IMG/VR virus record: IMGVR_UViG_3300029009_000076
Reading direction: 5' to 3' (one strand)
Source of the DNA: a virus
Taxonomy: Duplodnaviria; Heunggongvirae; Uroviricota; Caudoviricetes
DNA length: 15,689 nucleotides
Shown: one piece after another, positions 2,162-13,049 of the stretch
Numbering within the stretch: the first letter of the stretch is position 1
Layout of the letters: each line of letters begins with the position of its first letter
Translations under genes and position numbers: made by a program
The notes under the pieces: generated by a model
The model's input: the letters and a program-made list of their open reading frames with translations, nothing else
Databases searched by the model: none
Told to the model about the DNA's origin: nothing

Positions 2162-4754
2162 TTGCATATTCCTTAGCCCAGCGGGGCAGTGATAATGTCT
2201 TAATAGCTGGCCATTCATCGGTATTCAGGCAGTCAGACAGGGTTCGCAGATTGCGGTGATATTCCTGTTGACCTGCCAGTTTTGCTTCTTCGCCCATCAT
2301 GAAAATTTCAACCGGATAACGTCCGCATTCAATAGTTGTGCTGGCAACCAGAAAAACGAAAGTTGGCTGCACTCCAAACTGTGCTTCATAACCGTCACTG
2401 TAGAATGCATCCTGAACGTGATAGCGGTAGTCGTAATAAGCGGTTTTGAATCGTTGAATATCCGCCGTAGTTTTCACGTCCATGATCCAGTGAAATTCAG
2501 GGATAATTTTGTCCGGACGGCACCGACACAAAATTCCTGTTTCAGGATCTTCCCAGTAAATTGATGATTCAGCGTGTCCGGCGCTTTCAACAAGCCATTG
2601 CCCCAGCGGCAAAGCCATAACGCTTTGATACATGAGTTCAATTTTCCGGCCTTCTTCCGCAGTGATAACCGTTTTTCCTGTGCTTGCGCATTCCATCAGA
2701 AACGCTTTCTCTTCTTCTTTTCCGGCGTTTGTACGGCGGTTAAATTCAGGTGCTACGATAAAGCGGTTACTGAATTCTTCCGGTTCAAGTACCCGGCAGT
2801 GGAAAGCAGTTCCTAAATCGAGCGTTTTTGTCTTTGTGGTGTCCACGGGGGCATTTTTACGCCACAAATATAGTGCCGGAGTATCAGCAATGTCATCGAG
2901 CTGAGACTTACTGATACCGGGACCCGCGTGGTAATTCTCATTCGAAATTCCGTAATAAATACCTGGCTCTATGTCTTCTACGATTACGGGATCTGCGACT
3001 TCGCCAGTTTCATCACTGCAATCGCGATGCGGATCGCTGCCAGCATTCTCATTGTGCGGATGTTCAGCGCCTTCCATTTCCTCCGGATCATTTTCCTTAG
3101 CTTCAACCTGACTCTCTTCATCGAATGTTTCCTGGTATGTTGCGTCGCCCATCACCGCACCACAGTCAGGGCAGTTATCCCCGCCAGTCTGGCCGCAGGC
3201 ATTGCAGGCTATTTCCGGTTCCTGTTGCACTACTGGCTCAGGTTGATTCATATCTGGGCTGGTTTTTTCCGTTTCTGGCTGGTTCTGGTACACACAATCG
3301 CGAGTCTGGATCCCCTTTACCCATTTCGGATCGTTCGGGTCGCTAATTCCGTCAACAAATTCACCACGTGATGCAGCAAGCAATTTATCGGCATCGACAG
3401 GATTTTTTGATGGAATGTTTTTCCGGGCTTCATGGAGTTCTGCCCGCAGTTCCTGATATTTCGCATCAACAGAATTTACCTGTGACTGAGCATCCAGCGG
3501 CTGCGTGTCCTGATGATGTTCAGTTGCGTCCGGTTCCATTGTTTCAGCCTCTCCCTGTTCAACTGCCGTTGTTCCAGATGGTTGCGGTTTTTCTTCATCA
3601 TCCTGTTTTCCTTCTTCTGTTACTCGCTGCGGCATCGGGGCAGAGGAGCGACCGCAGGCAATATCCACGATTTCCGGATCAGGGTTGGCATGATCGGTTT
3701 CAGTCAGTACTTTGTTCAGATATTCAGTGACGTGCGCGGGGATGACCTCGATCCCAATTGGTGCTTCTTTTACGGACGCAACCACGATGGCGCGGGAATA
3801 ATCCAGCCCGCCAGGCATGGTGATGAATTTGTCGCGGAAAACAGAAAAGGGCGGTTTATTTTCAGCGATAATTTCCTCAATGCGTTTAGCGTGTGCCGGA
3901 TGAAGGTTATAGATGTCCAGATCCATTGAACGGGCCAGTACGCCAGTGGCTACGTCGCGCGCCAGTGACGTCAGATCGTGTACGAAACCTTCGCCGCGAT
4001 CGGTGAGGTTTCCGCCGCCAGCATTAGCACCGGAAGCCGTGCGAGTGATGTGTGAAACACGATTACCCTTCATCCACTCTTTTGTCAGCAGTCCTCGATC
4101 GGTGTAGTCAGCGTTCAGGTATGCTTCGAAAAAAGCAGTTATCAGTCCCAGGTTTGAATTACCAGGATTAGGGAAAACTTTGTCAGTGTCACGAACCAGT
4201 TTGTGGAGTTCGCGAATTTCCAGCGGGTCGAGCAGGCTGGTTTTGTGGGAAACAGCCAGGGCAGTAACAGCCGGTAGTTCTTCAGCCCGAGCAATGTGTA
4301 ATGCCTGGAGTCCGTCGCGTGAAACGTGCGTTACCGGTTTTTCGCTGCCGTGTTGAGCAAGCCAACGAATGGGCAGTTCCTGGCCAGAAATTGGGAGTAG
4401 CATATTCTCCTCAATCTCAGTCATGTCTTCGCCGTTGACGTTGGTATTGCCTTGATAGTGAGCGTTGTCTGGTGCTGCTCCCGGTTTTAGTTCCCATGTC
4501 ATGGAGTCTTTGCTGAGTTGATAGCGTTCACTCCAGGTAAAATCGATCTCACCTTCAGCGGGCAGGTCATTAACGACAGGAAAATTCGTGGCAACAGCTT
4601 TAAAATAGCTGCTCAGTTTTTTACCTGACTTAACGATCAGGTAGTCCAGAGTGGCACAGGTCGATTCAAAATCGTTGCTTGCCCACAGGACGACGTCAGG
4701 TTCACCGGATGATTTTTTCGCTTTCCGTAACAGGAAGAGTGGTTTTGTGCTCAT
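2154..4754 (-). CDS. recE: Exodeoxyribonuclease VIII RecE, 866 aa
   Basis: Full 866-aa [32 protein letters not shown]...; acidic central region and C-terminal nuclease domain as in RecE; sits directly upstream of recT in one operon. Confidence 0.9.
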
Positions 4755-4825
4755 TGTTTTTTAACCTCAACTCAGATTAAAATTCGTTTTGTTCAGTGAA
4801 TGATCTTGCCGGATACACACTGTTC

Positions 4826-4857
4826 ATAGCCTGCGCCATACGCAGGCTATTTCTTTC
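4826..4857 (+). terminator. Intrinsic-terminator-like hairpin oriented on the plus strand, between recE and racC
   Basis: Perfect 10-bp stem ATAGCCTGCG / CGCAGGCTAT with 5-nt loop (4826-4850) followed by TTCTTTC; the T-tract is only on the plus-strand side. Confidence 0.4.
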
Positions 4858-5131
4858 AGATTTCACCTTTTAATTTCATTGCAATTAGAGTTGCCAGAAA
4901 TTCGGCTTTTTTTTCTGCGGGCAGATTCTTTCCGATATGCACCAGGCACATTTTTTTGACACCTTCATCAAGTGTTTTTACGTTGCCTGATGGACCATCG
5001 ATATCAACCACAGTGAATGGGGTTTCTTTATTTTCTGTTTTAATTACGTAGCCAATGCGCTTTCCTTCCAGATTCACCTCGTGAACAATGTCATCGGTAG
5101 TTACAACAGTGGCTTCATAATTGGTAATCAT
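4856..5131 (-). CDS. racC: RacC, 91 aa
   Basis: MITNYEATVVTTDDIVHEVNLEGKRIGYVIKTENKETPF... recognised as RacC; ATG at 5131-5129 is preceded (on the minus strand) by AAGGAG. The ORF track's longer start at 5179 is not used. Confidence 0.75.
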   Translation of the reverse strand: MITNYEATVVTTDDIVHEVNLEGKRIGYVIKTENKETPFTVVDIDGPSGNVKTLDEGVKKMCLVHIGKNLPAEKKAEFLATLIAMKLKGEI

Positions 5132-5205
5132 GTTTTTCTCCTTAATTAAGGTTGAGCGAATACCTGCCATTTCTGGCATAAATTCAGTTTCGAATAGTCA
5201 ATTAA

Positions 5206-5376
5206 TTAAAGTTCATGTGCCATCTGGTCTTTTTCGGCACAAGCTTCACTGCAATATTTTCTCGGTTCGTCTTTTGATAAAATCCCGTGCATGAAGTGAA
5301 GCATTCTTTCAATAGCTTTGCTTTCTTCAACGTCTTTTTTGCAAAGGTGGTAAGCACATTTTATTTTCTTAGTCAT
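5206..5376 (-). CDS. ydaE: Small Cys-rich (probable zinc-binding) protein YdaE, 56 aa
   Basis: Not in the ORF track (too short). Reverse-strand translation [56 protein letters not shown]; start ATG at 5376-5374 shares 1 nt with the kilR stop. Confidence 0.7.
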   Translation of the reverse strand: MTKKIKCAYHLCKKDVEESKAIERMLHFMHGILSKDEPRKYCSEACAEKDQMAHEL

Positions 5377-5597
5377 CACCATGACTCCGCCTTTACAGGT
5401 AAACCATCACGACCGAGGAAGACTTTAATCATGCGGTCAGTAATGCATGTTTTTGTGGTCAGGTTACGAATATATAGTTTTCGCTTTTTAATATTGTTTG
5501 CCGAGGCAATATATGTCCGGCCTTCATGAAGAACATAATCGCCAGGAGTCACACACTGACGTGGTATTTCATCAGTTCCGAAGTGATGTGCAATCAT
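5376..5597 (-). CDS. kilR: KilR, cell-division (FtsZ) inhibitor toxin, 73 aa
   Basis: [46 protein letters not shown]... recognised as KilR; GGAGA Shine-Dalgarno upstream of ATG 5597-5595. Confidence 0.8.
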
Positions 5598-6038
5598 AAT
5601 TATCTCCATTTTTACAAATGAACTTTGTTGATGCGGTGCCTGGTGCCTCCAGGTGACTGCAACCAGTTAACAATTACAGTCGGCTTTCCCACCCAAACCA
5701 ATAAGGACTAACATGACTTTTAACTGTGCCACGTGCGCTTAGCCGCATTCACCGCATCACAAAATTCACTTTAAAAAGGGCGGACATCAGCCGAACTTCA
5801 AGAAAAAAACTGATGCCGCCAGGACTACACACAGCAATGTCGTTATTTACAACCGGAGGCGCACTCCCACCATTTAAATTTAACAGACAAGACCGACTCT
5901 TTATGGATATCGGAAATGCGCCTTCGTGTTGTGCCCGGTTTTATTTCACCACCTCCGGGCTTCGGTGGTCTCGGCTATACCCCTACAGCGAGAGCTTGTG
6001 TTAACATTTCAATACCCTTACAGTTGAGAGTTATTGAT

Positions 6039-6527
6039 ATGTTGGATGTATTTACTCCATTGTTGAAACTTTTTGCTAACGAGCCACTCGAAAGACTTAT
6101 GTATACGATTATCATTTTTGGTCTCACTCTCTGGCTGATACCGAAAGAGTTTACTGTCGCATTCAATGCTTATACTGAAATACCTTGGCTCTTTCAGATT
6201 ATCGTTTTTGCCTTTTCTTTCGTGGTCGCCATTTCCTTCTCAAGATTGCGAGCGCATATTCAAAAGCATTATTCATTACTACCAGAGCAACGAGTATTGC
6301 TTCGTTTATCTGAGAAAGAAATCGCTGTATTTAAAGATTTCCTTAAAACAGGAAATCTTATTATCACTTCTCCTTGCCGTAACCCGGTTATGAAAAAATT
6401 AGAACGGAAGGGCATCATTCAACATCAGAGTGATAGCGCAAACTGTTCTTATTATCTCGTCACCGAAAAATACTCCCATTTTATGAAGTTATTCTGGAAC
6501 AGCAGGAGTAGACGTTTTAATCGTTAG
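6039..6527 (+). CDS. sieB: Superinfection exclusion protein SieB, 162 aa
   Basis: MLDVFTPLLKLFANEPLERLMYTIIIFGLTLWLIPKEF... with hydrophobic N-terminal helices; ATG at 6039. The ORF track's upstream extension from 5916 is not used. Confidence 0.8.
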   Translation: MLDVFTPLLKLFANEPLERLMYTIIIFGLTLWLIPKEFTVAFNAYTEIPWLFQIIVFAFSFVVAISFSRLRAHIQKHYSLLPEQRVLLRLSEKEIAVFKDFLKTGNLIITSPCRNPVMKKLERKGIIQHQSDSANCSYYLVTEKYSHFMKLFWNSRSRRFNR

Positions 6528-6679
6528 CTTACTGTGTGCTTCTCCAACCATCGGCGCGCACCAGTTTCGGTTTTAAATGTTTTGCTTTTGGTATACGTCA
6601 TGGCAGTGAACGTTCCATCCTGGTTGGGGAACACGCCGCACACCAGGGATTCGTTGTTGCCGAGGTCGATTTTTTGCAT
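6524..6679 (-). CDS. ydaF: Small Rac protein YdaF-like, 51 aa
   Basis: Not in the ORF track. Reverse translation MQKIDLGNNESLVCGVFPNQDGTFTAMTYTKSKTFKTETGARRWLEKHTVS; GAGGTG Shine-Dalgarno before ATG 6679-6677; 3' end overlaps the sieB stop convergently. Confidence 0.6.
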   Translation of the reverse strand: MQKIDLGNNESLVCGVFPNQDGTFTAMTYTKSKTFKTETGARRWLEKHTVS

Positions 6680-6689
6680 TTTTCGCACC

Positions 6690-6824
6690 TCACATCTTGT
6701 TGTTGCGGATAGAGGCTTCTGCTTGCCAGAGATCCCAGTCGTTGCTACGTAAAGCCTGCACAGCCGGGCTGTAAGTGATACCGCAACAATCCATCAAATA
6801 CTGAACTACTTCGTAATGCACCAT
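6690..6824 (-). CDS. ydaG: Small Rac protein YdaG-like, 44 aa
   Basis: C-terminal 44 aa of ORF 6690..6983: MVHYEVVQYLMDCCGITYSPAVQALRSNDWDLWQAEASIRNNKM; GGGGAGAGA Shine-Dalgarno before ATG 6824-6822. Confidence 0.6.
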   Translation of the reverse strand: MVHYEVVQYLMDCCGITYSPAVQALRSNDWDLWQAEASIRNNKM

Positions 6825-6840
6825 CTTATCTCTCCCCTTA

Positions 6841-7242
6841 ACGCCGGGTATATGGACCATCTGTCGTGGTGCCACAATGGTGGATGGTAAGCCCGTCATA
6901 CCGGGAATGAGGCTGTCGAAGGAAAAATGCGACCAGGTTAACGCTATTGAACGTGATAAGGCGCTGGCATGGGTGGAGCGCAATATTAAAGTACCACTGA
7001 CCGAACCACAGAAAGCGGGTATAGCGTCATTTTGTCCCTATAACATTGGCCCCGGTAAGTGTTTCCCGTCGACGTTTTATAAGCGGCTGAATGCCGGTGA
7101 TCGTAAGGGTGCATGCGAGGCGATTCGCTGGTGGATAAAAGATGGTGGGCGCGATTGCCGCATACGTTCAAATAACTGCTATGGACAGGTTATTCGTCGT
7201 GACCAGGAAAGCGCATTAGCCTGTTGGGGGATAGATCAGTGA
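6841..7242 (+). pseudogene. 5'-truncated phage lysozyme-type endolysin (R-like); roughly the N-terminal 40 aa, including the likely catalytic/SAR region, are missing
   Basis: Frame is open from 6817; the part ...PGIWTICRGATMVDGKPVIPGMRLSKEKCDQVNAIERDKALAWVERNIKVPLTEPQKAGIASFCPYNIGPGKCF...ACWGIDQ aligns by eye to lambdoid prophage lysozymes (RrrD-like), but no N-terminal region or plausible start is present; stop TGA 7240-7242 overlaps the Rz start. Confidence 0.65.
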
Positions 7243-7703
7243 GCAGAGTCGCCGCGATTATTTATGCTCTGGTTATCTGCATCATCGTCTGCCTGTCATG
7301 GGCTGTTAATCATTACCGTGATAACGCCACCGCCTACAAAGAGCAGCGCGACAAAAATGCCAGAGAACTGAAGCTGGCGAACGCGGCAATTACTGACATG
7401 CAGATGCGTCAGCGTGATGTTGCTGCGCTCGATGCAAAATACACGAAGGAGTTAGCTGATGCGAAAGCTGAAAATGATGCTCTGCGTGATGATGTTGCCG
7501 CTGGTCGTCGTCGGTTGCACATCAAAGCAGTCTGTCAGTCAGTGCGTGAAGCCACCACCGCCTCCGGCGTGGATAATGCAGCCTCCCCCCGACTGGCAGA
7601 CACCGCTGAACGGGATTATTTCACCCTCCGGGAACGACTGGTAATGATGCAGGCCCAACTTGAAGGTGCTCAGCAATACATAACCGAACAGTGTTTAAAG
7701 TAA
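7239..7703 (+). CDS. rzpR: Rz-type i-spanin (inner-membrane spanin), about 154 aa, apparently intact
   Basis: [60 protein letters not shown]... is near-identical in pattern to lambda Rz; likely GTG start at 7239 overlapping the endolysin stop (the track offers TTG at 7224). Confidence 0.8.
7459..7644 (+). CDS. rzoR: Rz1-type o-spanin lipoprotein, 61 aa, embedded in the +1 frame of Rz
   Basis: [52 protein letters not shown]...: signal peptide with lipobox ...VVGC and a proline-rich mature part; AAGGAG Shine-Dalgarno at 7446-7451. Confidence 0.8.
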
Positions 7704-7840
7704 AATCTTAACTACAATATGATTCATTTTGATGATTGTTTCATAAGGAACAGTGAAGTAAGATCTAAGAGGAGTTAAATTTTATACAGTATAATCATAA
7801 TATTGCAGCAAGGTGGTTATAATTGAAAGAATATTTAGAT

Positions 7841-9298
7841 ATGAATACATCTCATGTAAGAGTTGTTACTCATATGTGTGGGTTCCTGGTTTGGCTCTAT
7901 AGTCTTTCAATGTTGCCACCAATGGTTGTAGCATTGTTTTATAAAGAAAAAAGCCTATTCGTTTTCTTTATAACTTTCGTTATATTTTTTTGCATTGGTG
8001 GCGGAGCGTGGTATACAACTAAGAAATCTGGCATTCAATTACGTACCCGTGATGGGTTTATTATAATTGTAATGTTTTGGATTTTGTTTTCTGTTATTAG
8101 TGCATTCCCTTTATGGATTGACTCAGAACTTAATTTAACGTTCATTGATGCTCTGTTTGAAGGGGTTTCTGGAATAACAACAACAGGAGCAACTGTAATT
8201 GATGATGTTAGTTCATTACCTCGGGCATATTTGTACTATCGGTCACAGTTAAATTTTATAGGTGGTTTAGGAGTTATTGTTCTGGCGGTTGCTGTATTGC
8301 CATTATTGGGTATTGGTGGTGCAAAGCTTTATCAGTCAGAAATGCCGGGGCCATTTAAGGATGACAAACTCACTCCCCGCCTGGCCGATACGTCACGGAC
8401 ACTGTGGATAACTTATTCTTTATTAGGTATTGCTTGTATTGTCTGTTATAGACTTGCAGGAATGCCTTTGTTTGATGCTATTTGTCACGGGATTTCCACA
8501 GTTTCGCTTGGTGGTTTCTCAACTCATAGCGAGAGTATCGGATATTTTAATAACTATTTGGTTGAGCTGGTGGCTGGTTCTTTTTCCCTGCTATCGGCTT
8601 TCAACTTCACTCTTTGGTATATTGTTATTAGCAGGAAAACGATAAAACCTTTAATCAGAGATATTGAACTTCGTTTCTTTCTGTTAATAGCCTTAGGGGT
8701 GATCATTGTTACCTCTTTCCAGGTCTGGCATATAGGTATGTATGACTTGCATGGAAGTTTTATTCATTCGTTTTTTCTTGCCAGCTCCATGCTCACTGAT
8801 AATGGTTTAGCTACGCAGGATTATGCAAGCTGGCCCACGCACACGATAGTGTTTTTGCTGTCGTCAAGTTTCTTTGGGGGATGTATAGGTTCAACTTGTG
8901 GTGGAATTAAGTCACTTCGATTTCTTATACTTTTCAAACAAAGCAAACACGAGATAAATCAGCTTTCTCATCCCAGAGCGTTGTTGAGTGTAAATGTAGG
9001 AGGGAAGATAGTTACAGATCGTGTAATGAGGTCTGTATGGAGTTTCTTTTTTCTTTATACTCTCTTCACGGTGTTTTTTATACTGGTGTTAAATGGTATG
9101 GGATATGATTTTCTTACATCATTTGCAACAGTGGCTGCATGTATTAATAATATGGGATTAGGTTTTGGGGCTACTGCATCGTCATTCGGAGTGCTTAATG
9201 ACATTGCAAAATATTTAATGTGCATAGCTATGATTCTTGGTCGCCTTGAAATTTATCCTGTTATTATATTGTTTTCAGGTTTTTTTTGGCGCTCCTAA
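7841..9298 (+). CDS. trkG: Potassium uptake protein TrkG (TrkH/TrkG family), 485 aa; prophage moron
   Basis: MNTSHVRVVTHMCGFLVWLYSLSMLPP... is a polytopic membrane protein recognised as TrkG; gene and flanks are visibly AT-rich compared with neighbouring phage genes. The track's TTG start at 7823 is an alternative (see findings). Confidence 0.85.
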   Translation: MNTSHVRVVTHMCGFLVWLYSLSMLPPMVVALFYKEKSLFVFFITFVIFFCIGGGAWYTTKKSGIQLRTRDGFIIIVMFWILFSVISAFPLWIDSELNLTFIDALFEGVSGITTTGATVIDDVSSLPRAYLYYRSQLNFIGGLGVIVLAVAVLPLLGIGGAKLYQSEMPGPFKDDKLTPRLADTSRTLWITYSLLGIACIVCYRLAGMPLFDAICHGISTVSLGGFSTHSESIGYFNNYLVELVAGSFSLLSAFNFTLWYIVISRKTIKPLIRDIELRFFLLIALGVIIVTSFQVWHIGMYDLHGSFIHSFFLASSMLTDNGLATQDYASWPTHTIVFLLSSSFFGGCIGSTCGGIKSLRFLILFKQSKHEINQLSHPRALLSVNVGGKIVTDRVMRSVWSFFFLYTLFTVFFILVLNGMGYDFLTSFATVAACINNMGLGFGATASSFGVLNDIAKYLMCIAMILGRLEIYPVIILFSGFFWRS

Positions 9299-9384
9299 TA
9301 TATGGCTGATTTATAATTGTGAGTTTAATATTATATTGACTCACTCATTGATCCAATACCTAACTTTACCAGCAACACCTCCGC

Positions 9385-9420
9385 CCCCAGTAGCACTGGC
9401 TGCTGGGGTGCGTTTTATTC
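9385..9420 (+). terminator. Putative intrinsic terminator downstream of trkG
   Basis: 10-bp stem (9385-9394 / 9399-9408, one G-U pair) with 4-nt loop, followed by TGCGTTTTATTC. Confidence 0.45.
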
Positions 9421-9435
9421 ATAAAGCAAGGCTGT

Positions 9436-10224
9436 ATGAGCGAGAAATTAAAGATAGTCTATCGCCCATTACAAGAATTGTCACCGTATGCGCACAACGC
9501 CAGGACGCACAGTACTGAGCAGGTGGCACAACTGGTAGAAAGTATTAAGCAATTCGGCTGGACTAATCCGGTGCTGATTGACGAAAAGGGCGAAATTATT
9601 GCGGGTCACGGTCGTGTTATGGCGGCTGAAATGCTCAAAATGGATTCTGTTCCGGTCATTGTTCTGTCTGGCCTGACGGATGAGCAGAAAAAGGCGTACC
9701 GCCTGGCAGATAATCGCCTACCAATGAATGCTGGCTGGGATGAAGATCTGTTGCGGATGGAGCTGTCGGACCTAATCAATGCTGATTTTGATGTCTCCCT
9801 GACAGGCTTCGGCCCGACAGAAATTGATGAACTGTTGACGGATGTTTTGCCCGGTACAGGAAATAAGGAGGAGCCGTATACGACGAAAATTGATACGCCT
9901 GTTTATGAGCCGTCGGGCGGTAAACCGGATATCAGTGAACTGTACGACGATACGAAAACTCAGGAGCTGATCAGCCGGATACGTTCGGCGTCCCTTGATC
10001 CTGATATTGAGAAATTCCTCCTGTGTGCGGCAGAACGTCACACGGTGTTTAATTTCAGCAGAATTGCGGACTATTACGCTCATGCCCCCGCTGAAATTCA
10101 GTGCCTTTTCGAGGAGTCGGCGCTGGTGATCATTGATTATCAGCAGGCTATTGAAAATGGATTTGTCCGAATGACGCAGCGCATGGTGGCGATCATGCAT
10201 AGCGGGGAGGAGGAATATGCGTGA
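9436..10224 (+). CDS. ParB/Srx-like nuclease-domain protein, 262 aa (apparent full-length counterpart of the short K-12 Rac ynaK)
   Basis: N-terminal region IVYRPLQELSPYAHNARTHSTEQVAQLVESIKQFGWTNPVLIDEKGEIIAGHGRVMAAEMLKMDSVPVIVL has the ParB N-terminal domain pattern (GHGR in the position of the ParB arginine box); the C-terminal half is of unknown type; stop overlaps the next gene's start. Confidence 0.7.
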   Translation: MSEKLKIVYRPLQELSPYAHNARTHSTEQVAQLVESIKQFGWTNPVLIDEKGEIIAGHGRVMAAEMLKMDSVPVIVLSGLTDEQKKAYRLADNRLPMNAGWDEDLLRMELSDLINADFDVSLTGFGPTEIDELLTDVLPGTGNKEEPYTTKIDTPVYEPSGGKPDISELYDDTKTQELISRIRSASLDPDIEKFLLCAAERHTVFNFSRIADYYAHAPAEIQCLFEESALVIIDYQQAIENGFVRMTQRMVAIMHSGEEEYA

Positions 10225-11149
10225 TGATTTTTGCGCCTTTATTCTGACTCACGGGCGACCGGACAAAGTTCTGACTTACCGGACGTTGCGTCGTGCTGGC
10301 TATACCGGGAAAATTTTTATCGTTGTTGATGATGAAGATAAGACACGGCATCAGTACATGGCTGAATTTGGTGAACAGGTGCTGGTATTTTCCAAAGCCG
10401 ATATTGCCAGTCGTTTTGACGAAGCCGATAATTTTGGTGACCGCCGCTCAATTTTTTACGCCCGTAATGCCTGTTTCGACCTGGCAAAACTGGTCGGGTG
10501 TAAATACTTCATTCAGCTCGATGATGATTATCACGAGTTCCAGTTTCGGGTGGATCGCAACTATGACCAGGCCTATTTCCCGATAAGGAAACTGGATGCG
10601 ATCCTTTCTGAAATGCTGGCGTATTACGAATCAATACCCGCGCTTTCCATCGCTATGTCGCAGGGCGGGGATTTTCTTGGTGACAATGGCGGCCATGCTT
10701 CGTGGGTGAAACGCAAGGCAATGAACAGCTTTATCTGTTCGGTTGATCGACCGTTCTCATTCATGGGGCGCATTAACGAGGATGTGAATACGTACACGAA
10801 TCTCGGTCGCCGTGGTGAATTGTTTATGACGATCGGTGCTGTCCAGTTAGGGCAGAAACAGACGCAGAAAAACAGCGGCGGAATGACCGAGCTGTATCTG
10901 GATTCCGGGACCTACGTTAAAAGTTTTTATTCCGTCATGTATGCGCCGTCGTGCGTAAAAATCTCACTGATGGGCGCCAGCCATAAACGCATTCACCATC
11001 AGGTCACCTGGAACAACGCTGCAGTAAAAATCCTTCACGAAAAATACAGGAAGAAGACACCCTGCATATTAATGGGGGTGACAAATGATTCCGTATTCGA
11101 AAGTCGAGTCTCTGGCAGCGTGCCGGATGACTGCACAACAAATCGCTGA
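10217..11149 (+). CDS. Hypothetical protein, 310 aa, with GT-A-like glycosyltransferase motifs (tentative)
   Basis: Strong Shine-Dalgarno GGGGAGGAGG at 10204-10213; start ATGCGTGA overlaps the ParB-like stop. Motifs FCAFILTHGRPD ... GKIFIVVDDED ... KYFIQLDDDYHEF resemble the N-terminal strand, acidic strand and DxD motif of GT-A-fold nucleotide-sugar transferases. No methyltransferase or PP-loop motifs seen. Confidence 0.55.
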   Translation: MRDDFCAFILTHGRPDKVLTYRTLRRAGYTGKIFIVVDDEDKTRHQYMAEFGEQVLVFSKADIASRFDEADNFGDRRSIFYARNACFDLAKLVGCKYFIQLDDDYHEFQFRVDRNYDQAYFPIRKLDAILSEMLAYYESIPALSIAMSQGGDFLGDNGGHASWVKRKAMNSFICSVDRPFSFMGRINEDVNTYTNLGRRGELFMTIGAVQLGQKQTQKNSGGMTELYLDSGTYVKSFYSVMYAPSCVKISLMGASHKRIHHQVTWNNAAVKILHEKYRKKTPCILMGVTNDSVFESRVSGSVPDDCTTNR

Positions 11150-11336
11150 CGTTCTGGATGTTGATCTGAACCGACTGAAAGAAAATCGGGAAGCAATGAC
11201 AAATTTTTACGCGTCCATCCGTAAGGGCAGAGCGAAAGGTGAAGCCGAGCTACGGGCGGCATTGTTTAAGCTTGCCAGAAAAGGGGATGCCTTTGCCCTG
11301 CGCGAACTACTCAGGGTGGATAAAAATCAGGACTAA
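11085..11336 (+). CDS. Small helix-turn-helix-like protein, 83 aa (possibly DNA-packaging associated)
   Basis: GGGGGTG Shine-Dalgarno before ATG 11085; segment MTAQQIADVLDVDLNRLKENR looks like an HTH; overlaps the 3' end of the upstream gene; lies directly upstream of the terminase genes. Confidence 0.45.
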   Translation: MIPYSKVESLAACRMTAQQIADVLDVDLNRLKENREAMTNFYASIRKGRAKGEAELRAALFKLARKGDAFALRELLRVDKNQD

Positions 11337-11470
11337 CTGATGAGCAGACCGGACTGGGGGGCGTTGCAGCAGGAGTATATTGCTGAATACACCCGCTCCG
11401 GTATATCTCCGGTGGCATGGTGTGAAGCAATCAGTACCAGAAACGCTATACCGCAGACCTGGATTTACTG

Positions 11471-12049
11471 GTGAGTCAGTTGATGGCCATTGTCCAGGCC
11501 GACCCCAATCAGTTGGCACAATTTCGCCGTGTTAACTGCCGTTATTGCTGGGGCGAGAATCATCACTACCAGTGGCGCGATATAGCAGAATTCGATAAGG
11601 CAGCGGCGCAGGCCTCCAGAGATGGCAAACCCGAGCCGGAATATGGTGGCCTTGGCTTTGTTGATAACGCCATACCCAATCCGGACTGCCCGAAGTGCTG
11701 CGGTGAGGGAACGGGGCAGCTTTATATGGCTGATACCACTCTGCTTGATGGGGAAGCGCGGCAATTATATGCAGGGGCAAAGCTCGGAAAATTTGGTGTT
11801 GAGATCCTGCTGGAGGATAAGGCTGCCGCCCGGCGTGAATTGTTGCGTTTGCTTGCTGCTGGTGGGGCTTTATGTGCAGATAAGCGGCTACAGGAACTGG
11901 AAATTGAACGGCGCAGAATGGAAAACCAGAAGCTGCGCAAAGAGATCGAAACGGTGGAAGATAATGAACATCCCCAACCTGTGGCGATCAATATTAATGT
12001 GGTTGATGCCAGAGTAAGGAGTGATGAAGATGATCTCTCCGACGCTTAA
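11471..12049 (+). CDS. Putative terminase small subunit, 192 aa as given in the ORF track (possibly the 3' part of a frame-disrupted gene)
   Basis: Position immediately upstream of, and overlapping, the terminase large subunit; Cys4 cluster (CRYC ... CPKCC) and charged coiled-coil-like C-terminus (LQELEIERRRMENQKLRKEIE). The only start is GTG; the frame is open from 11426 and a 44-aa ATG ORF (11340-11474) overlaps in another frame. Confidence 0.5.
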   Translation: MSQLMAIVQADPNQLAQFRRVNCRYCWGENHHYQWRDIAEFDKAAAQASRDGKPEPEYGGLGFVDNAIPNPDCPKCCGEGTGQLYMADTTLLDGEARQLYAGAKLGKFGVEILLEDKAAARRELLRLLAAGGALCADKRLQELEIERRRMENQKLRKEIETVEDNEHPQPVAININVVDARVRSDEDDLSDA

Positions 12050-13049
12050 TGTGCCTCAGGCGCGATTTCTTTCAATGCCCCATAAATTTAAAGCCTATAT
12101 TGCTGGTTTTGGCTCGGGCAAAACATGGGTTGGGTGTGGCGGCATATGCAAGGGGATTTGGGAGCATCCAGGTATAAATCAGGGATATTTTGCGCCAACG
12201 TATCCCCAAATTCGCGATATTTTTTACCCTACAGTGGAAGAAGTTGCTGCTGACTGGGGATTGAACGTAAAAATTAATGAGGGAAATAAAGAGGTTCACT
12301 TTTATTACGGACGCCAGTATCGGGGAACCACTATCTGCAGATCGATGGAGAAGCCACAAACGATCGTCGGTTTCAAAATTGGTAATGCGTTGGTGGATGA
12401 ACTGGACATTTTGCCGAAGGAAAAAGCCAGAACGGCGTGGCGCAAGATAATTGCGCGTATGCGTTATAAGATTGATGGACTTCGCAACGGTATTGACGTT
12501 ACAACCACGCCGGAAGGATTCAAATTTGTCTACGAGCAGTTTGTTAAAGCCGTGCGTGAAAAAACAGAGCTGGCCTCACTGTATGGTCTGGTGCAGGCAT
12601 CTACTTTCGATAATGAAAAGAACCTGCCAGCAGATTACATTCCTTCGCTTCTTGAATCATACCCTCCAGAGCTGATTAAAGCCTATCTGCGAGGACAGTT
12701 TACTAACCTGACAAGTGGTACTGTTTACCATCAGTTTGACCGGAAACTGAATAATTGCGAAGAAGTGGAGCAGCCAGGGGAGCCGATTTATATTGGGATG
12801 GATTTTAACGTTGGAAAGATGGCGGGAATCGTCCATGTGCTGCGTTTGGGGCTTCCATGTGCGGTAACTGAAATCATCAATGCCTACGATACGCCGGATA
12901 TGATCCGCATCATTAAAGAACGCTTCTGGCCGTATGACGGGCATGATTACCGGAAAGTGAGGGAGATTTATATTTATCCAGATGCTTCCGGAGATTCCAG
13001 AAAATCAAGTAACGCAAGTACGACGGATATACCCGGATCGCAACAGTAA
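12030..13049 (+). pseudogene. Terminase large subunit, ATPase domain only; truncated at the start of the nuclease domain
   Basis: Walker A AGFGSGKT and Walker B-like ALVDELDIL; AAGGAG Shine-Dalgarno at 12016-12021; the ORF ends after IYIGMDFNVGK... at about 340 aa, whereas full-length large terminases have a C-terminal nuclease domain beyond this point. Confidence 0.7.

Follow-up and report, generated by a model that had tools for sequence, protein, structure and literature searches.

A 15,689-nucleotide stretch of viral DNA (IMG/VR record IMGVR_UViG_3300029009_000076, Caudoviricetes), referred to in its entirety as the window, carries the gene order of a Rac-like Escherichia coli prophage: recT/recE, trkG, a pair of overlapping genes and the terminase genes. 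The overlapping pair is the subject of this analysis. Its upstream open reading frame (ORF), ORF A, combines a ParB/Srx module with a C-terminal partner domain, and its downstream frame, ORF B, encodes a soluble glycosyltransferase. Together they form a conserved module that lies ahead of terminase genes in viruses of bacteria and haloarchaea. The two genes and their parts are laid out as follows.

9436-10224, plus strand: ORF A, the intact form of YnaK, ATG start, 262 amino acids (aa)
9436-9849, plus strand: ParB/Srx N-terminal module of ORF A (aa 1-138), from Pfam, a PDB profile search and AlphaFold2 (AF2) with Foldseek
9877-9915, plus strand: motif Y-T-T-K-I-D-T-P-V-Y-E-P-S of ORF A (aa 148-160), from alignments, in a predicted disordered segment
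9868-10200, plus strand: C-terminal partner domain of ORF A (aa 145-255), which has no Pfam family and accompanies the glycosyltransferase
10204-10213, plus strand: GGGGAGGAGG, Shine-Dalgarno sequence of ORF B, within the 3′ end of ORF A
10217-10224, plus strand: ATGCGTGA, 8 nucleotides (nt) in which the ORF A stop is shared with the ORF B start
10217-11149, plus strand: ORF B, soluble GT-A glycosyltransferase of the TAGT family (PF20691), ATG start, 310 aa
10238-10882, plus strand: Pfam TAGT domain of ORF B (aa 8-222), E 5.8e-36, profile positions 4-205 of 205
10328-10339, plus strand: D38-D39-E40-D41 of ORF B at the end of strand 32-38 of the AF2 model, with D38 and D41 invariant
10520-10528, plus strand: D102-D103-D104 of ORF B, an invariant DxD-type motif at the end of strand 97-102 of the AF2 model

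An initial annotation of the window had described two overlapping, translationally coupled genes with a strong Shine-Dalgarno sequence on the second. Both elements are present in the DNA: the ATGCGTGA overlap, and GGGGAGGAGG, which ends 3 nt 5′ of the ORF B ATG. The ribosome site of ORF A is no more than a weak AAGG (9428-9431). Purifying selection acts on both genes: the ratio of nonsynonymous to synonymous substitution rates (dN/dS) is 0.06-0.11 where dS is unsaturated (about 0.1 for ORF A and about 0.06 for ORF B).

ORF B is a GT-A-fold glycosyltransferase

ORF B matches PHROG 842 over its full length (phrog_842, E 1e-103), a family labelled 'beta-glucosyl-HMC-alpha-glucosyltransferase' (HMC, hydroxymethylcytosine). 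A comparison with TET-associated glycosyltransferases had been proposed as a check and is positive, with 124.8 bits against PF20691, the TET-associated glycosyltransferase (TAGT) family, at a cut-off of 27.5. The name given to it in UniRef is 'GREB1-related'. The family is large, with at least 8000 clusters at 90% identity. NCBIfam and PADLOC hold no model that matches the glycosyltransferase, and a PDB sequence search with its profile returned chance matches to T4 gp54 only. The protein is soluble, has no transmembrane segment and has an isoelectric point (pI) of 8.4.

ORF B had been taken for a GT-A-fold nucleotide-sugar transferase on the strength of three motifs, FILTHGRPD, IFIVVDDED and QLDDDYHEF. 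All three are found in the protein, and Pfam, AF2 and Foldseek agree on the assignment. The AF2 model has a GT-A core, with a predicted local distance difference test (pLDDT) score above 90 in the N-terminal half and an average of 91 over the block at aa 101-110. It is not a non-transferase fold, and D102-D104 is not misplaced, lying in the model where the DxD motif of GT-A enzymes is usual. The PDB matches found by Foldseek include the GT-A enzymes SunS/ThuS, LH3, SpsA and glycogenin, and those in BFVD include viral TAGT proteins, down to E 5e-22.

Among homologues at 59-83% identity, R14, D38/D41, D102-D104, N187/D189 and a GGMT motif are invariant. E188 is kept in at least 90% of homologues, and the third motif reads E-D-V. 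The DDD of ORF B is the counterpart of the one in R...DDD...EDY/F, the motif described for phage DNA glycosyltransferases of GT-A fold (bioRxiv 10.1101/2023.12.21.572611). From its conserved residues and its model, ORF B looks like an active enzyme, with predicted metal binding. The E. coli protein ends in a 22-aa tail (aa 289-310; 11083-11149) that is absent from homologues in other genera and overlaps the 5′ end of the next small ORF (11085-11336).

The C-terminal domain of ORF A is the constant partner

About 160 viral contigs carrying the glycosyltransferase were scored with hidden Markov models of the glycosyltransferase, the ORF A N-terminal module and the ORF A C-terminal domain (C-domain). 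Wherever a glycosyltransferase locus includes upstream sequence, the ORF directly 5′ of the glycosyltransferase encodes the C-domain. The reverse search, started from stand-alone C-domain proteins, finds the glycosyltransferase downstream in all 79 loci with room. It is directly adjacent in 74 of the 80 stand-alone loci, one of which is without room, and the remaining five have a 255-294 aa class-I S-adenosylmethionine (SAM) methyltransferase gene inserted between the C-domain gene and the glycosyltransferase. The N-terminal module is often divergent and is absent in about ten clusters, where the partner is a stand-alone protein of 134-156 aa, as in Vibrio jumbo phages. An exhaustive search with the C-domain by itself returned 1184 representatives of 50%-identity clusters, and 117 of the best 150 matches are 200-340 aa long, the length expected for a ParB N-terminal module joined to the C-domain.

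The stop of the partner gene and the start of the glycosyltransferase gene overlap by 4, 8 or 11 nt in 43 of 48 cluster representatives, which together with the overlap in the window supports translational coupling of the pair. In the 534-aa protein P0380, found in three independent contigs, a second, divergent TAGT-family glycosyltransferase, a ParB N-terminal module and the C-domain are fused in one chain. A 16.6-kb JGI contig carries P0380 followed by the canonical glycosyltransferase, the large terminase and a portal gene; the two glycosyltransferases of this locus suggest a disaccharide product. The constant partner of the glycosyltransferase is therefore the C-domain of ORF A and not the ParB module. 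Fusion, coupling and strict co-occurrence argue that the C-domain and the glycosyltransferase act as one unit. The initial pairing of a ParB domain with a glycosyltransferase holds as a conserved gene pair, with the C-domain in the place given to ParB, which many of the 134-156 aa partners lack.

The two variant arrangements map to the following positions.

L196 and L201 4380-5147, L221 1428-2216, L231 4374-5258, L247 4334-5185: inserted SAM methyltransferase gene
L167 214-1818, L168 26-1630: P0380-type fusion gene

Both junctions of the inserted gene are overlapping stops and starts in L196/L201, L231 and L247, and the product of this three-gene variant may perhaps be a methylated sugar. The inserted enzyme is of the Methyltransf_23/11/12/25 type (E about 1e-5). 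In another contig (L126), a radical-SAM protein gene (3385-4233) lies directly 5′ of a stand-alone C-domain gene (4247-4699) and the glycosyltransferase.

ORF A joins a ParB/Srx module to a partner domain outside Pfam

ORF A matches PHROG 620 over its full length (phrog_620, E 3e-90) and is laid out as the ParB/Srx module, a linker with a conserved Tyr motif, and the C-terminal partner domain. It is predicted to be soluble, with no transmembrane segment, a pI of 4.6 and a charge of -21. A ParB/Srx N-terminal domain with a GHGR box had been recognised at the outset, and three lines of evidence agree with it. The module scores 29.3 bits against Pfam ParB_N (PF02195; cut-off 26.3, E 9e-7). A PDB profile search returns Noc, ParB and Spo0J, with G57-H58-G59-R60 aligned to the GERR box of Noc (GHGR is aa 57-60, and an ADN sequence follows at aa 91-93). 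The AF2 model has the ParB/Srx fold at pLDDT 80-93, and its top Foldseek matches are Noc, ParB (ParB-CDP), KorB, PadC and sulfiredoxin, with free serine kinase (5x0k and others) also among the matches.

Within this fold, the module belongs to the type that phages and plasmids carry at the N-terminus of fusions with DNA methyltransferases. Residues 10-141 of ORF A match PADLOC MTase_II (PDLC03229, E 1e-38), of which they cover positions 13-148 of 436, and PHROG 498 (E 4e-51). The likeness is confined to this module, as a Pfam scan finds no methyltransferase domain in ORF A. Identity as a partition ParB of the ParABS type is rejected, the C-terminal half being a different domain. ORF A reaches 38 bits against NCBIfam parB_part, under the cut-off of 58, and no ParA is annotated near the pair in the intact Rac-like prophage used for comparison (L001).

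The linker motif is almost invariant across homologues, with the consensus Y-[TS]-x-K-[IV]-x-x-P-x-Y-x-P. In alignments at 40-65% identity, Y148, P155 and Y157 are invariant and position 159 is mostly Pro. Residue 149 is Ala in the homologue P0308 and residue 151 is Asp in P0380, so that the two Tyr and the Pro residues are what is fixed. AF2 gives a pLDDT below 50 over aa 137-170. Beyond the motif, the C-domain is helical, with conserved FL..AA.RH, IA.YY, E.SALVIID and AI..G segments. It belongs to no Pfam family; its sole signal is a recurrent, sub-threshold one to PF23887 (E about 0.01), which was set aside as uninformative together with single weak matches to ArdA and UPF0262. A role as a helix-turn-helix (HTH) DNA binder was set aside because of the acidic character of the whole domain, its putative recognition helix included, and one as a terminase docking site because terminase families vary between loci.

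Genomic position and distribution

The features that flank the pair in the window are as follows.

9385-9408, plus strand: hairpin of 10 pairs followed by a T-run, terminator-like, after trkG and 28 nt 5′ of ORF A
11085-11336, plus strand: next small ORF, leading into the terminase genes, phrog_309 terminase small subunit (E 2.5e-22)

The small ORF at 11085-11336 matches part of the small-terminase family phrog_309. The potassium transporter gene trkG, the moron of the region (7823-9298), sits between the lysis genes and the pair. No convincing promoter is found between the hairpin at 9385-9408 and ORF A, and promoter-like matches within 9200-11500 are at chance level. A terminator-like hairpin with no promoter after it argues that the pair belongs to the late transcript and is reached by read-through, in contrast to a moron expressed on its own.

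Against 50,697 deposited phage records, tblastn with ORF B finds the glycosyltransferase in 38. Matches at 40-47% identity come from Lactobacillus phages (phi jlb1, c5 and relatives), Nocardia phage NTR1, Vibrio jumbo phages and haloarchaeal virus HHTV-2, and a more distant one (26.5%) from Porphyromonas phages. Identity between the E. coli prophage, the Lactobacillus and Nocardia phages and the haloarchaeal (Haloarcula) virus is 42-47%. In every record that is annotated there, a 'ParB-like' gene lies directly 5′ of the glycosyltransferase gene and overlaps it. The gene-neighbourhood comparison once proposed as a check thus finds the pair co-occurring and not separable, and lytic phages carry it too.

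The pair lies 5′ of the terminase in viruses of Proteobacteria, Firmicutes, Actinobacteria, Bacteroidetes and haloarchaea. A large terminase is among the three genes 3′ of the glycosyltransferase in more than 80% of 50 cluster representatives, belonging to Terminase_6N in 21, Terminase_3 in 18 and GpA in 2. Alongside it are portal genes and HTH proteins that resemble small terminases, and more terminase matches occur slightly farther out. The three genes 5′ of the pair are heterogeneous, with replication, recombination or lysis functions. Phage c5, a cos phage, has the pair as its ORF1/ORF2, the first genes past cos, and Nocardia phage NTR1 has no annotated terS between the pair and terL. The window had been read as showing the pair in a moron position between the lysis/trkG genes and the terminase genes. 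The position is correct; it is not a slot specific to Rac, since the pair lies 5′ of the terminase in unrelated viruses.

Copies in E. coli and the state of this prophage

E. coli strain FDAARGOS_497 matches the 2-kb stretch 9300-11300 at 100% identity, and 889 of 5426 complete E. coli genomes contain at least 80% of this stretch. K-12 matches only its first 390 nt, which hold the first 254 nt of ORF A (ynaK). Of the two K-12 remnants of the pair suggested earlier, ynaK is indeed a truncated ORF A; ydaY is not a remnant of ORF B, as the intact Rac-like prophage carries that gene beside the tail tube gene, about 10 kb downstream. RefSeq/PGAP calls the intact 262-aa ORF A of FDAARGOS_497 a ynaK pseudogene 'missing C-terminus' (L001 20137-20394), and the naming model behind this call likely derives from the truncated YnaK of K-12.

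Relative to the intact prophage, the window lacks L001 7524-17941 (about 10.4 kb with immunity, replication and adjacent genes), with the junction at window 6849-7240. The small terminase gene has suffered a 382-bp deletion (window 11430) that leaves ORFs 11340-11474 and 11471-12049 in different frames, and the large terminase gene (12021-13049) diverges from L001 after 13034. The window prophage has thus lost its regulatory region and has damaged terminase genes, and both ORFs of the pair are intact. On its left and right flanks it matches E. coli B strains at 100% identity; those strains are without the glycosyltransferase and carry two ynaK/ParB fragments only (L166 11452-11883).

In many E. 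coli database proteins (P0007, P0024, P0043, P0195, P0197 and P0238), parts of ORF A or ORF B are joined to NlpC/P60, tail-fibre or Ail/Lom sequences. These were not accepted as real TAGT fusions with NlpC/P60, tail or Lom proteins and are taken as deletion chimeras in decaying prophages; they suggest that the locus is a frequent deletion end-point in Rac prophages. Between its replication genes and its DUF1367/DUF1364/DUF1133 genes, the intact prophage has a gene for a P-loop ATPase of the Sll1717 family and a remnant of Hok/Gef (L001 11797-13866), both absent from the window.

Hydroxymethylated bases and DNA-modification neighbours

Enzymes of the TAGT family are named for a genomic context that this clade fails to show, as no TET/JBP or hydroxymethylase family recurs nearby. 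Among families matched by at least two of 419 neighbouring proteins from about 50 clusters, neither Tet_JBP nor thymidylate synthase is listed, a count that a single match could escape. The intact Rac-like prophage has no gene annotated for TET/JBP, a thymidylate-synthase-like enzyme, dCMP hydroxymethylase or an alpha- or beta-glucosyltransferase, and in phage c5, whose 31.8-kb genome is complete, the annotation includes neither a hydroxymethylase nor TET nor a DNA methyltransferase. Hydroxymethyl-pyrimidines are not known to be made by E. coli. The tblastn matches of ORF B listed at E 1e-5 include neither T2 nor T6. The family name is a misfit for this clade.

Similar cases have been counted elsewhere. 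Solitary TAGT homologues of undefined function, with no alpha- or beta-glucosyltransferase, occur in 288 of 753 phages with such enzymes (2026 NAR, PMC13216743), and about 65% of viral contigs that contain these glycosyltransferases are without 5mYOX or ThyS, with ParB among the neighbours (10.1101/2023.12.21.572611).

DNA methyltransferases are found beside the pair at two loci. In L122, a fusion of ParB and an N6-methyltransferase lies directly 5′ of the pair, and in L094 a ParB-like gene and a C5-methyltransferase lie just 5′ of it, in both cases ahead of the terminase genes. Methyltransferase and glycosyltransferase units with ParB modules therefore share one niche. The L094 genes form an overlapping operon (3036-8500) that runs through a ParB-like protein, a C5 cytosine methyltransferase, a CmoA/YecO-like protein, the partner with ParB module and C-domain, the glycosyltransferase, terS and terL. 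Its CmoA/YecO-like protein is a homologue of carboxy-SAM synthase (PDB 1im8, E 4.5e-25), and its place beside a C5-methyltransferase hints at natural 5-carboxymethylcytosine.

A tentative model of late DNA glycosylation and its rivals

As first proposed, the pair may serve in DNA modification, protein modification or anti-restriction. The acceptor must be either universal or encoded by the module, because the glycosyltransferase is strongly conserved across distant hosts (at the 42-47% identity given above) and the two products are both cytoplasmic. This leaves DNA, nucleotides or the partner protein. The favoured reading, held tentatively and almost as readily right as wrong, is that a self-contained late module glycosylates phage DNA before packaging, independently of hydroxymethylcytosine.

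In this mechanism, ORF B would be a metal-dependent GT-A enzyme that draws on a host nucleotide-sugar as donor. ORF A would act as its subunit, with coupling fixing the ratio of the two proteins. The C-domain would bind, and perhaps complete, the transferase, and the ParB/Srx module, which is optional, would tether the complex to DNA where it is present. The sugar would be added to replicated phage DNA shortly before or during packaging and may shield the injected genome from nucleases of the next host. In contrast to every characterised TAGT, and to all known DNA glycosylation, the reaction would have no need for 5-hydroxymethyl-pyrimidines from TET/JBP or thymidylate-synthase-like enzymes, which would place the acceptor atom on canonical DNA. 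A stronger form of the claim, in which the pair is the first system to glycosylate canonical, non-hydroxymethylated DNA, and so a new class of modification laid down at packaging, is doubtful. At the level of sequence, what favours DNA is the methyltransferase-type N-terminal module and the methyltransferase neighbours in L122 and L094. An earlier proposal by Iyer et al., as relayed by Burke et al. 2021 (PMC8256090), also counts toward this link.

Several observations weigh against DNA as the acceptor. The ParB module, the chief argument for DNA, is dispensable: no ORF with a ParB N-terminal domain lies within 4 kb in 63 of 65 stand-alone C-domain loci. The C-domain, like ORF A as a whole, is acidic, which is atypical for a DNA-binding adaptor, and its AF2 model is of low confidence, leaving its role weakly defined. 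No inverted repeat or parS-like site occurs within 9200-11500. The pair of the window is probably silent, residing as it does in a decaying prophage. We know of no glycosylation of canonical DNA bases, and the characterised relatives that we know of all transfer to hydroxyls (of 5-hydroxymethylcytosine (5hmC), 5-hydroxymethyluracil (5hmU), a sugar or Ser/Thr), which canonical bases do not offer. A search of the available literature turned up no case of phage DNA that carries sugars on canonical bases. GREB1, a relative of TAGT, glycosylates a protein, placing O-linked N-acetylglucosamine (O-GlcNAc) on estrogen receptor alpha (ERα; PMC7968844). Literature searches combining TAGT and ParB found no study of this pair, those on ynaK returned nothing relevant, and those on HHTV-2 found no information on DNA modification. 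A paper on anti-Tmn in Dhillonvirus is unrelated and cites Iyer 2013 for Nmad5 only.

The example of GREB1 (PMC7968844) leads to the rival that survives best, although it is rather unlikely. Here the glycosyltransferase would modify its own partner (for example at Tyr148 or Tyr157, or at residue 149, mostly Thr/Ser, of the disordered motif) or another protein of the module, and ParB, where present, would attach the glycoprotein to DNA for packaging or for action at the genome. The partner is always there, even without ParB, and its motif combines near-invariance with predicted disorder, as would suit an acceptor or docking peptide. The best PDB folds include the peptide glycosyltransferases SunS/ThuS and self-glucosylating glycogenin, and the variants with a second glycosyltransferase or a SAM methyltransferase fit elaboration of a glycan, on any acceptor and under either model. 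Against this stand the methyltransferase-type ParB module of most partners and the DNA methyltransferases beside the pair in L122 and L094. Ala149 in P0308 and Asp151 in P0380 leave only the Tyr pair and Pro as fixed residues, and no reason is known for a glycoprotein to be linked to several terminase families.

Late glycosylation of a metabolite, a nucleotide, RNA or a defence signal, with a role in anti-defence or in the nucleotide pool, is improbable. Such a target would satisfy the need for an acceptor that is universal across bacteria and archaea and would suit the lack of a hydroxymethyl-base pathway; among proteins of ParB/Srx fold are kinases of small molecules, for instance free serine kinase (5x0k). 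The neighbourhoods, however, show nothing of nucleotide metabolism or signalling, the N-terminal module is of the methyltransferase-fused, DNA-associated type, and the strict pre-terminase position is left unexplained.

That position is the natural starting point for a packaging accessory, in which the ParB-like protein would recognise or cut pac or cos for the terminase and the protein of glycosyltransferase fold would be structural or regulatory. The constant site directly 5′ of terS/terL, next to cos in c5, accords with such a role, as do loci such as that of Nocardia phage NTR1 where no terS is annotated between the pair and terL. Against such a role, the glycosyltransferase has invariant catalytic residues kept by strong purifying selection, the partner can do without its ParB domain, and the occurrence of at least three unrelated terminase families makes a specific protein contact unlikely. 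With the glycosyltransferase in only 38 of 50,697 phage records, packaging has no general requirement for it, and this role is slightly less credible again than the small-molecule one.

A classical TAGT activity, with 5hmC, 5hmU or glucosyl-hydroxymethylcytosine made elsewhere in the phage or host as the acceptor, is very improbable. Membership of PF20691 and the PHROG 842 label point that way, the T2/T6 TAGT enzyme acts on glucosyl-hydroxymethylcytosine (PMC13216743), and phage TET-linked GT-A enzymes act on 5hmC (10.1101/2023.12.21.572611). The genomic survey speaks against it: no TET/JBP or thymidylate-synthase-like family is listed among the 419 neighbours, none is annotated in the intact Rac-like prophage or c5, and T2 and T6 are missing from the tblastn matches listed. 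The host, as far as we know, would not supply such bases either. Lysogenic conversion, in which the glycosyltransferase would alter a surface glycan of the lysogen against superinfection in the manner of prophage-encoded GT-A enzymes (TarP, the Gtr systems; 10.1101/2023.12.21.572611), is close to refuted. Neither of the two soluble proteins has a transmembrane segment, and they come with no flippase and no partner linked to bactoprenol. The pair lies in a late operon, past a terminator, and is shared by lytic phages and by viruses whose hosts have unrelated envelopes, haloarchaea among them.

Comparison with known systems

The pair could not be matched to a named system when it was first described, and this absence of a characterised match is borne out. 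Among the closest named enzymes is the beta-glucosyl-HMC-alpha-glucosyltransferase of T2/T6, which shares with ORF B the PF20691 family, the GT-A fold, phage origin and the PHROG label (PMC13216743). The T-even enzyme extends the glucose on 5hmC, requires a dCMP hydroxymethylase and an alpha-glucosyltransferase, and has no reported partner like ORF A. The present pair differs in having no hydroxymethylcytosine pathway, an obligate C-domain partner and a pre-terminase site. Its context is also different, a temperate siphovirus-type prophage in which no dCMP hydroxymethylase or alpha- or beta-glucosyltransferase is annotated.

The GT-A enzymes associated with TET/5mYOX in metagenomic phages share the R...DDD...ED motif and act on phage DNA after replication (PMC8256090; 10.1101/2023.12.21.572611). 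The literature on them notes ParB genes near these clusters and suggests targeting linked to packaging. The TET/5mYOX clusters carry a C5-methyltransferase and a TET-type dioxygenase that make 5hmC, whereas neither recurs in the present clade, and the third motif is E-D-Y/F in their enzymes and E-D-V in the ORF B clade. More distantly, JGT, which glucosylates 5hmU in DNA, and GREB1, which O-GlcNAcylates protein, have GT-A domains related to that of ORF B (PMC7968844). Both are large eukaryotic proteins without a ParB or C-domain partner, and their acceptors (hydroxymethyluracil and Ser/Thr of ERα) are unavailable or irrelevant here. The membrane features and bactoprenol or teichoic-acid features of seroconverting Gtr/TarP-type glycosyltransferases are not those of the pair.

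On the side of ORF A, the fusions of a ParB N-terminal domain to a methyltransferase (PHROG 498, PDLC03229) have an N-terminus homologous to its module and can take the same pre-terminase site, as in L122. In ORF A the C-domain replaces the methyltransferase and the glycosyltransferase is a separate protein, giving a two-part enzyme. Pairs of the DpdA/DpdB and IbrA/IbrB type follow the same logic, joining an NTPase-like subunit of ParB/Srx fold to a catalytic subunit that modifies DNA. Their catalytic partners differ, being tRNA-guanine-transglycosylase-like and 3′-phosphoadenosine-5′-phosphosulfate (PAPS)-reductase-like, and they have no C-domain. We know of no terminase linkage for either type.

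Significance

The pair spans two domains of life and is present in about one in six sequenced E. coli strains. Its genes currently go by 'hypothetical', 'partition protein' or the misleading 'beta-glucosyl-HMC-alpha-glucosyltransferase', which amounts to an annotation blind spot. As only two small genes are involved, the DNA and protein outcomes are both directly testable in E. coli. If the partner is the target, the pair would be a rare dedicated viral system for cytoplasmic glycoprotein, tied to genome packaging. If the acceptor is DNA without a hydroxymethylated base, the pair would represent a new DNA modification, which would matter for the sequencing and cloning of such phage DNA and could explain part of the 'solitary TAGT' puzzle (PMC13216743). 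It would also offer these viruses a new route past restriction and possibly past CRISPR.

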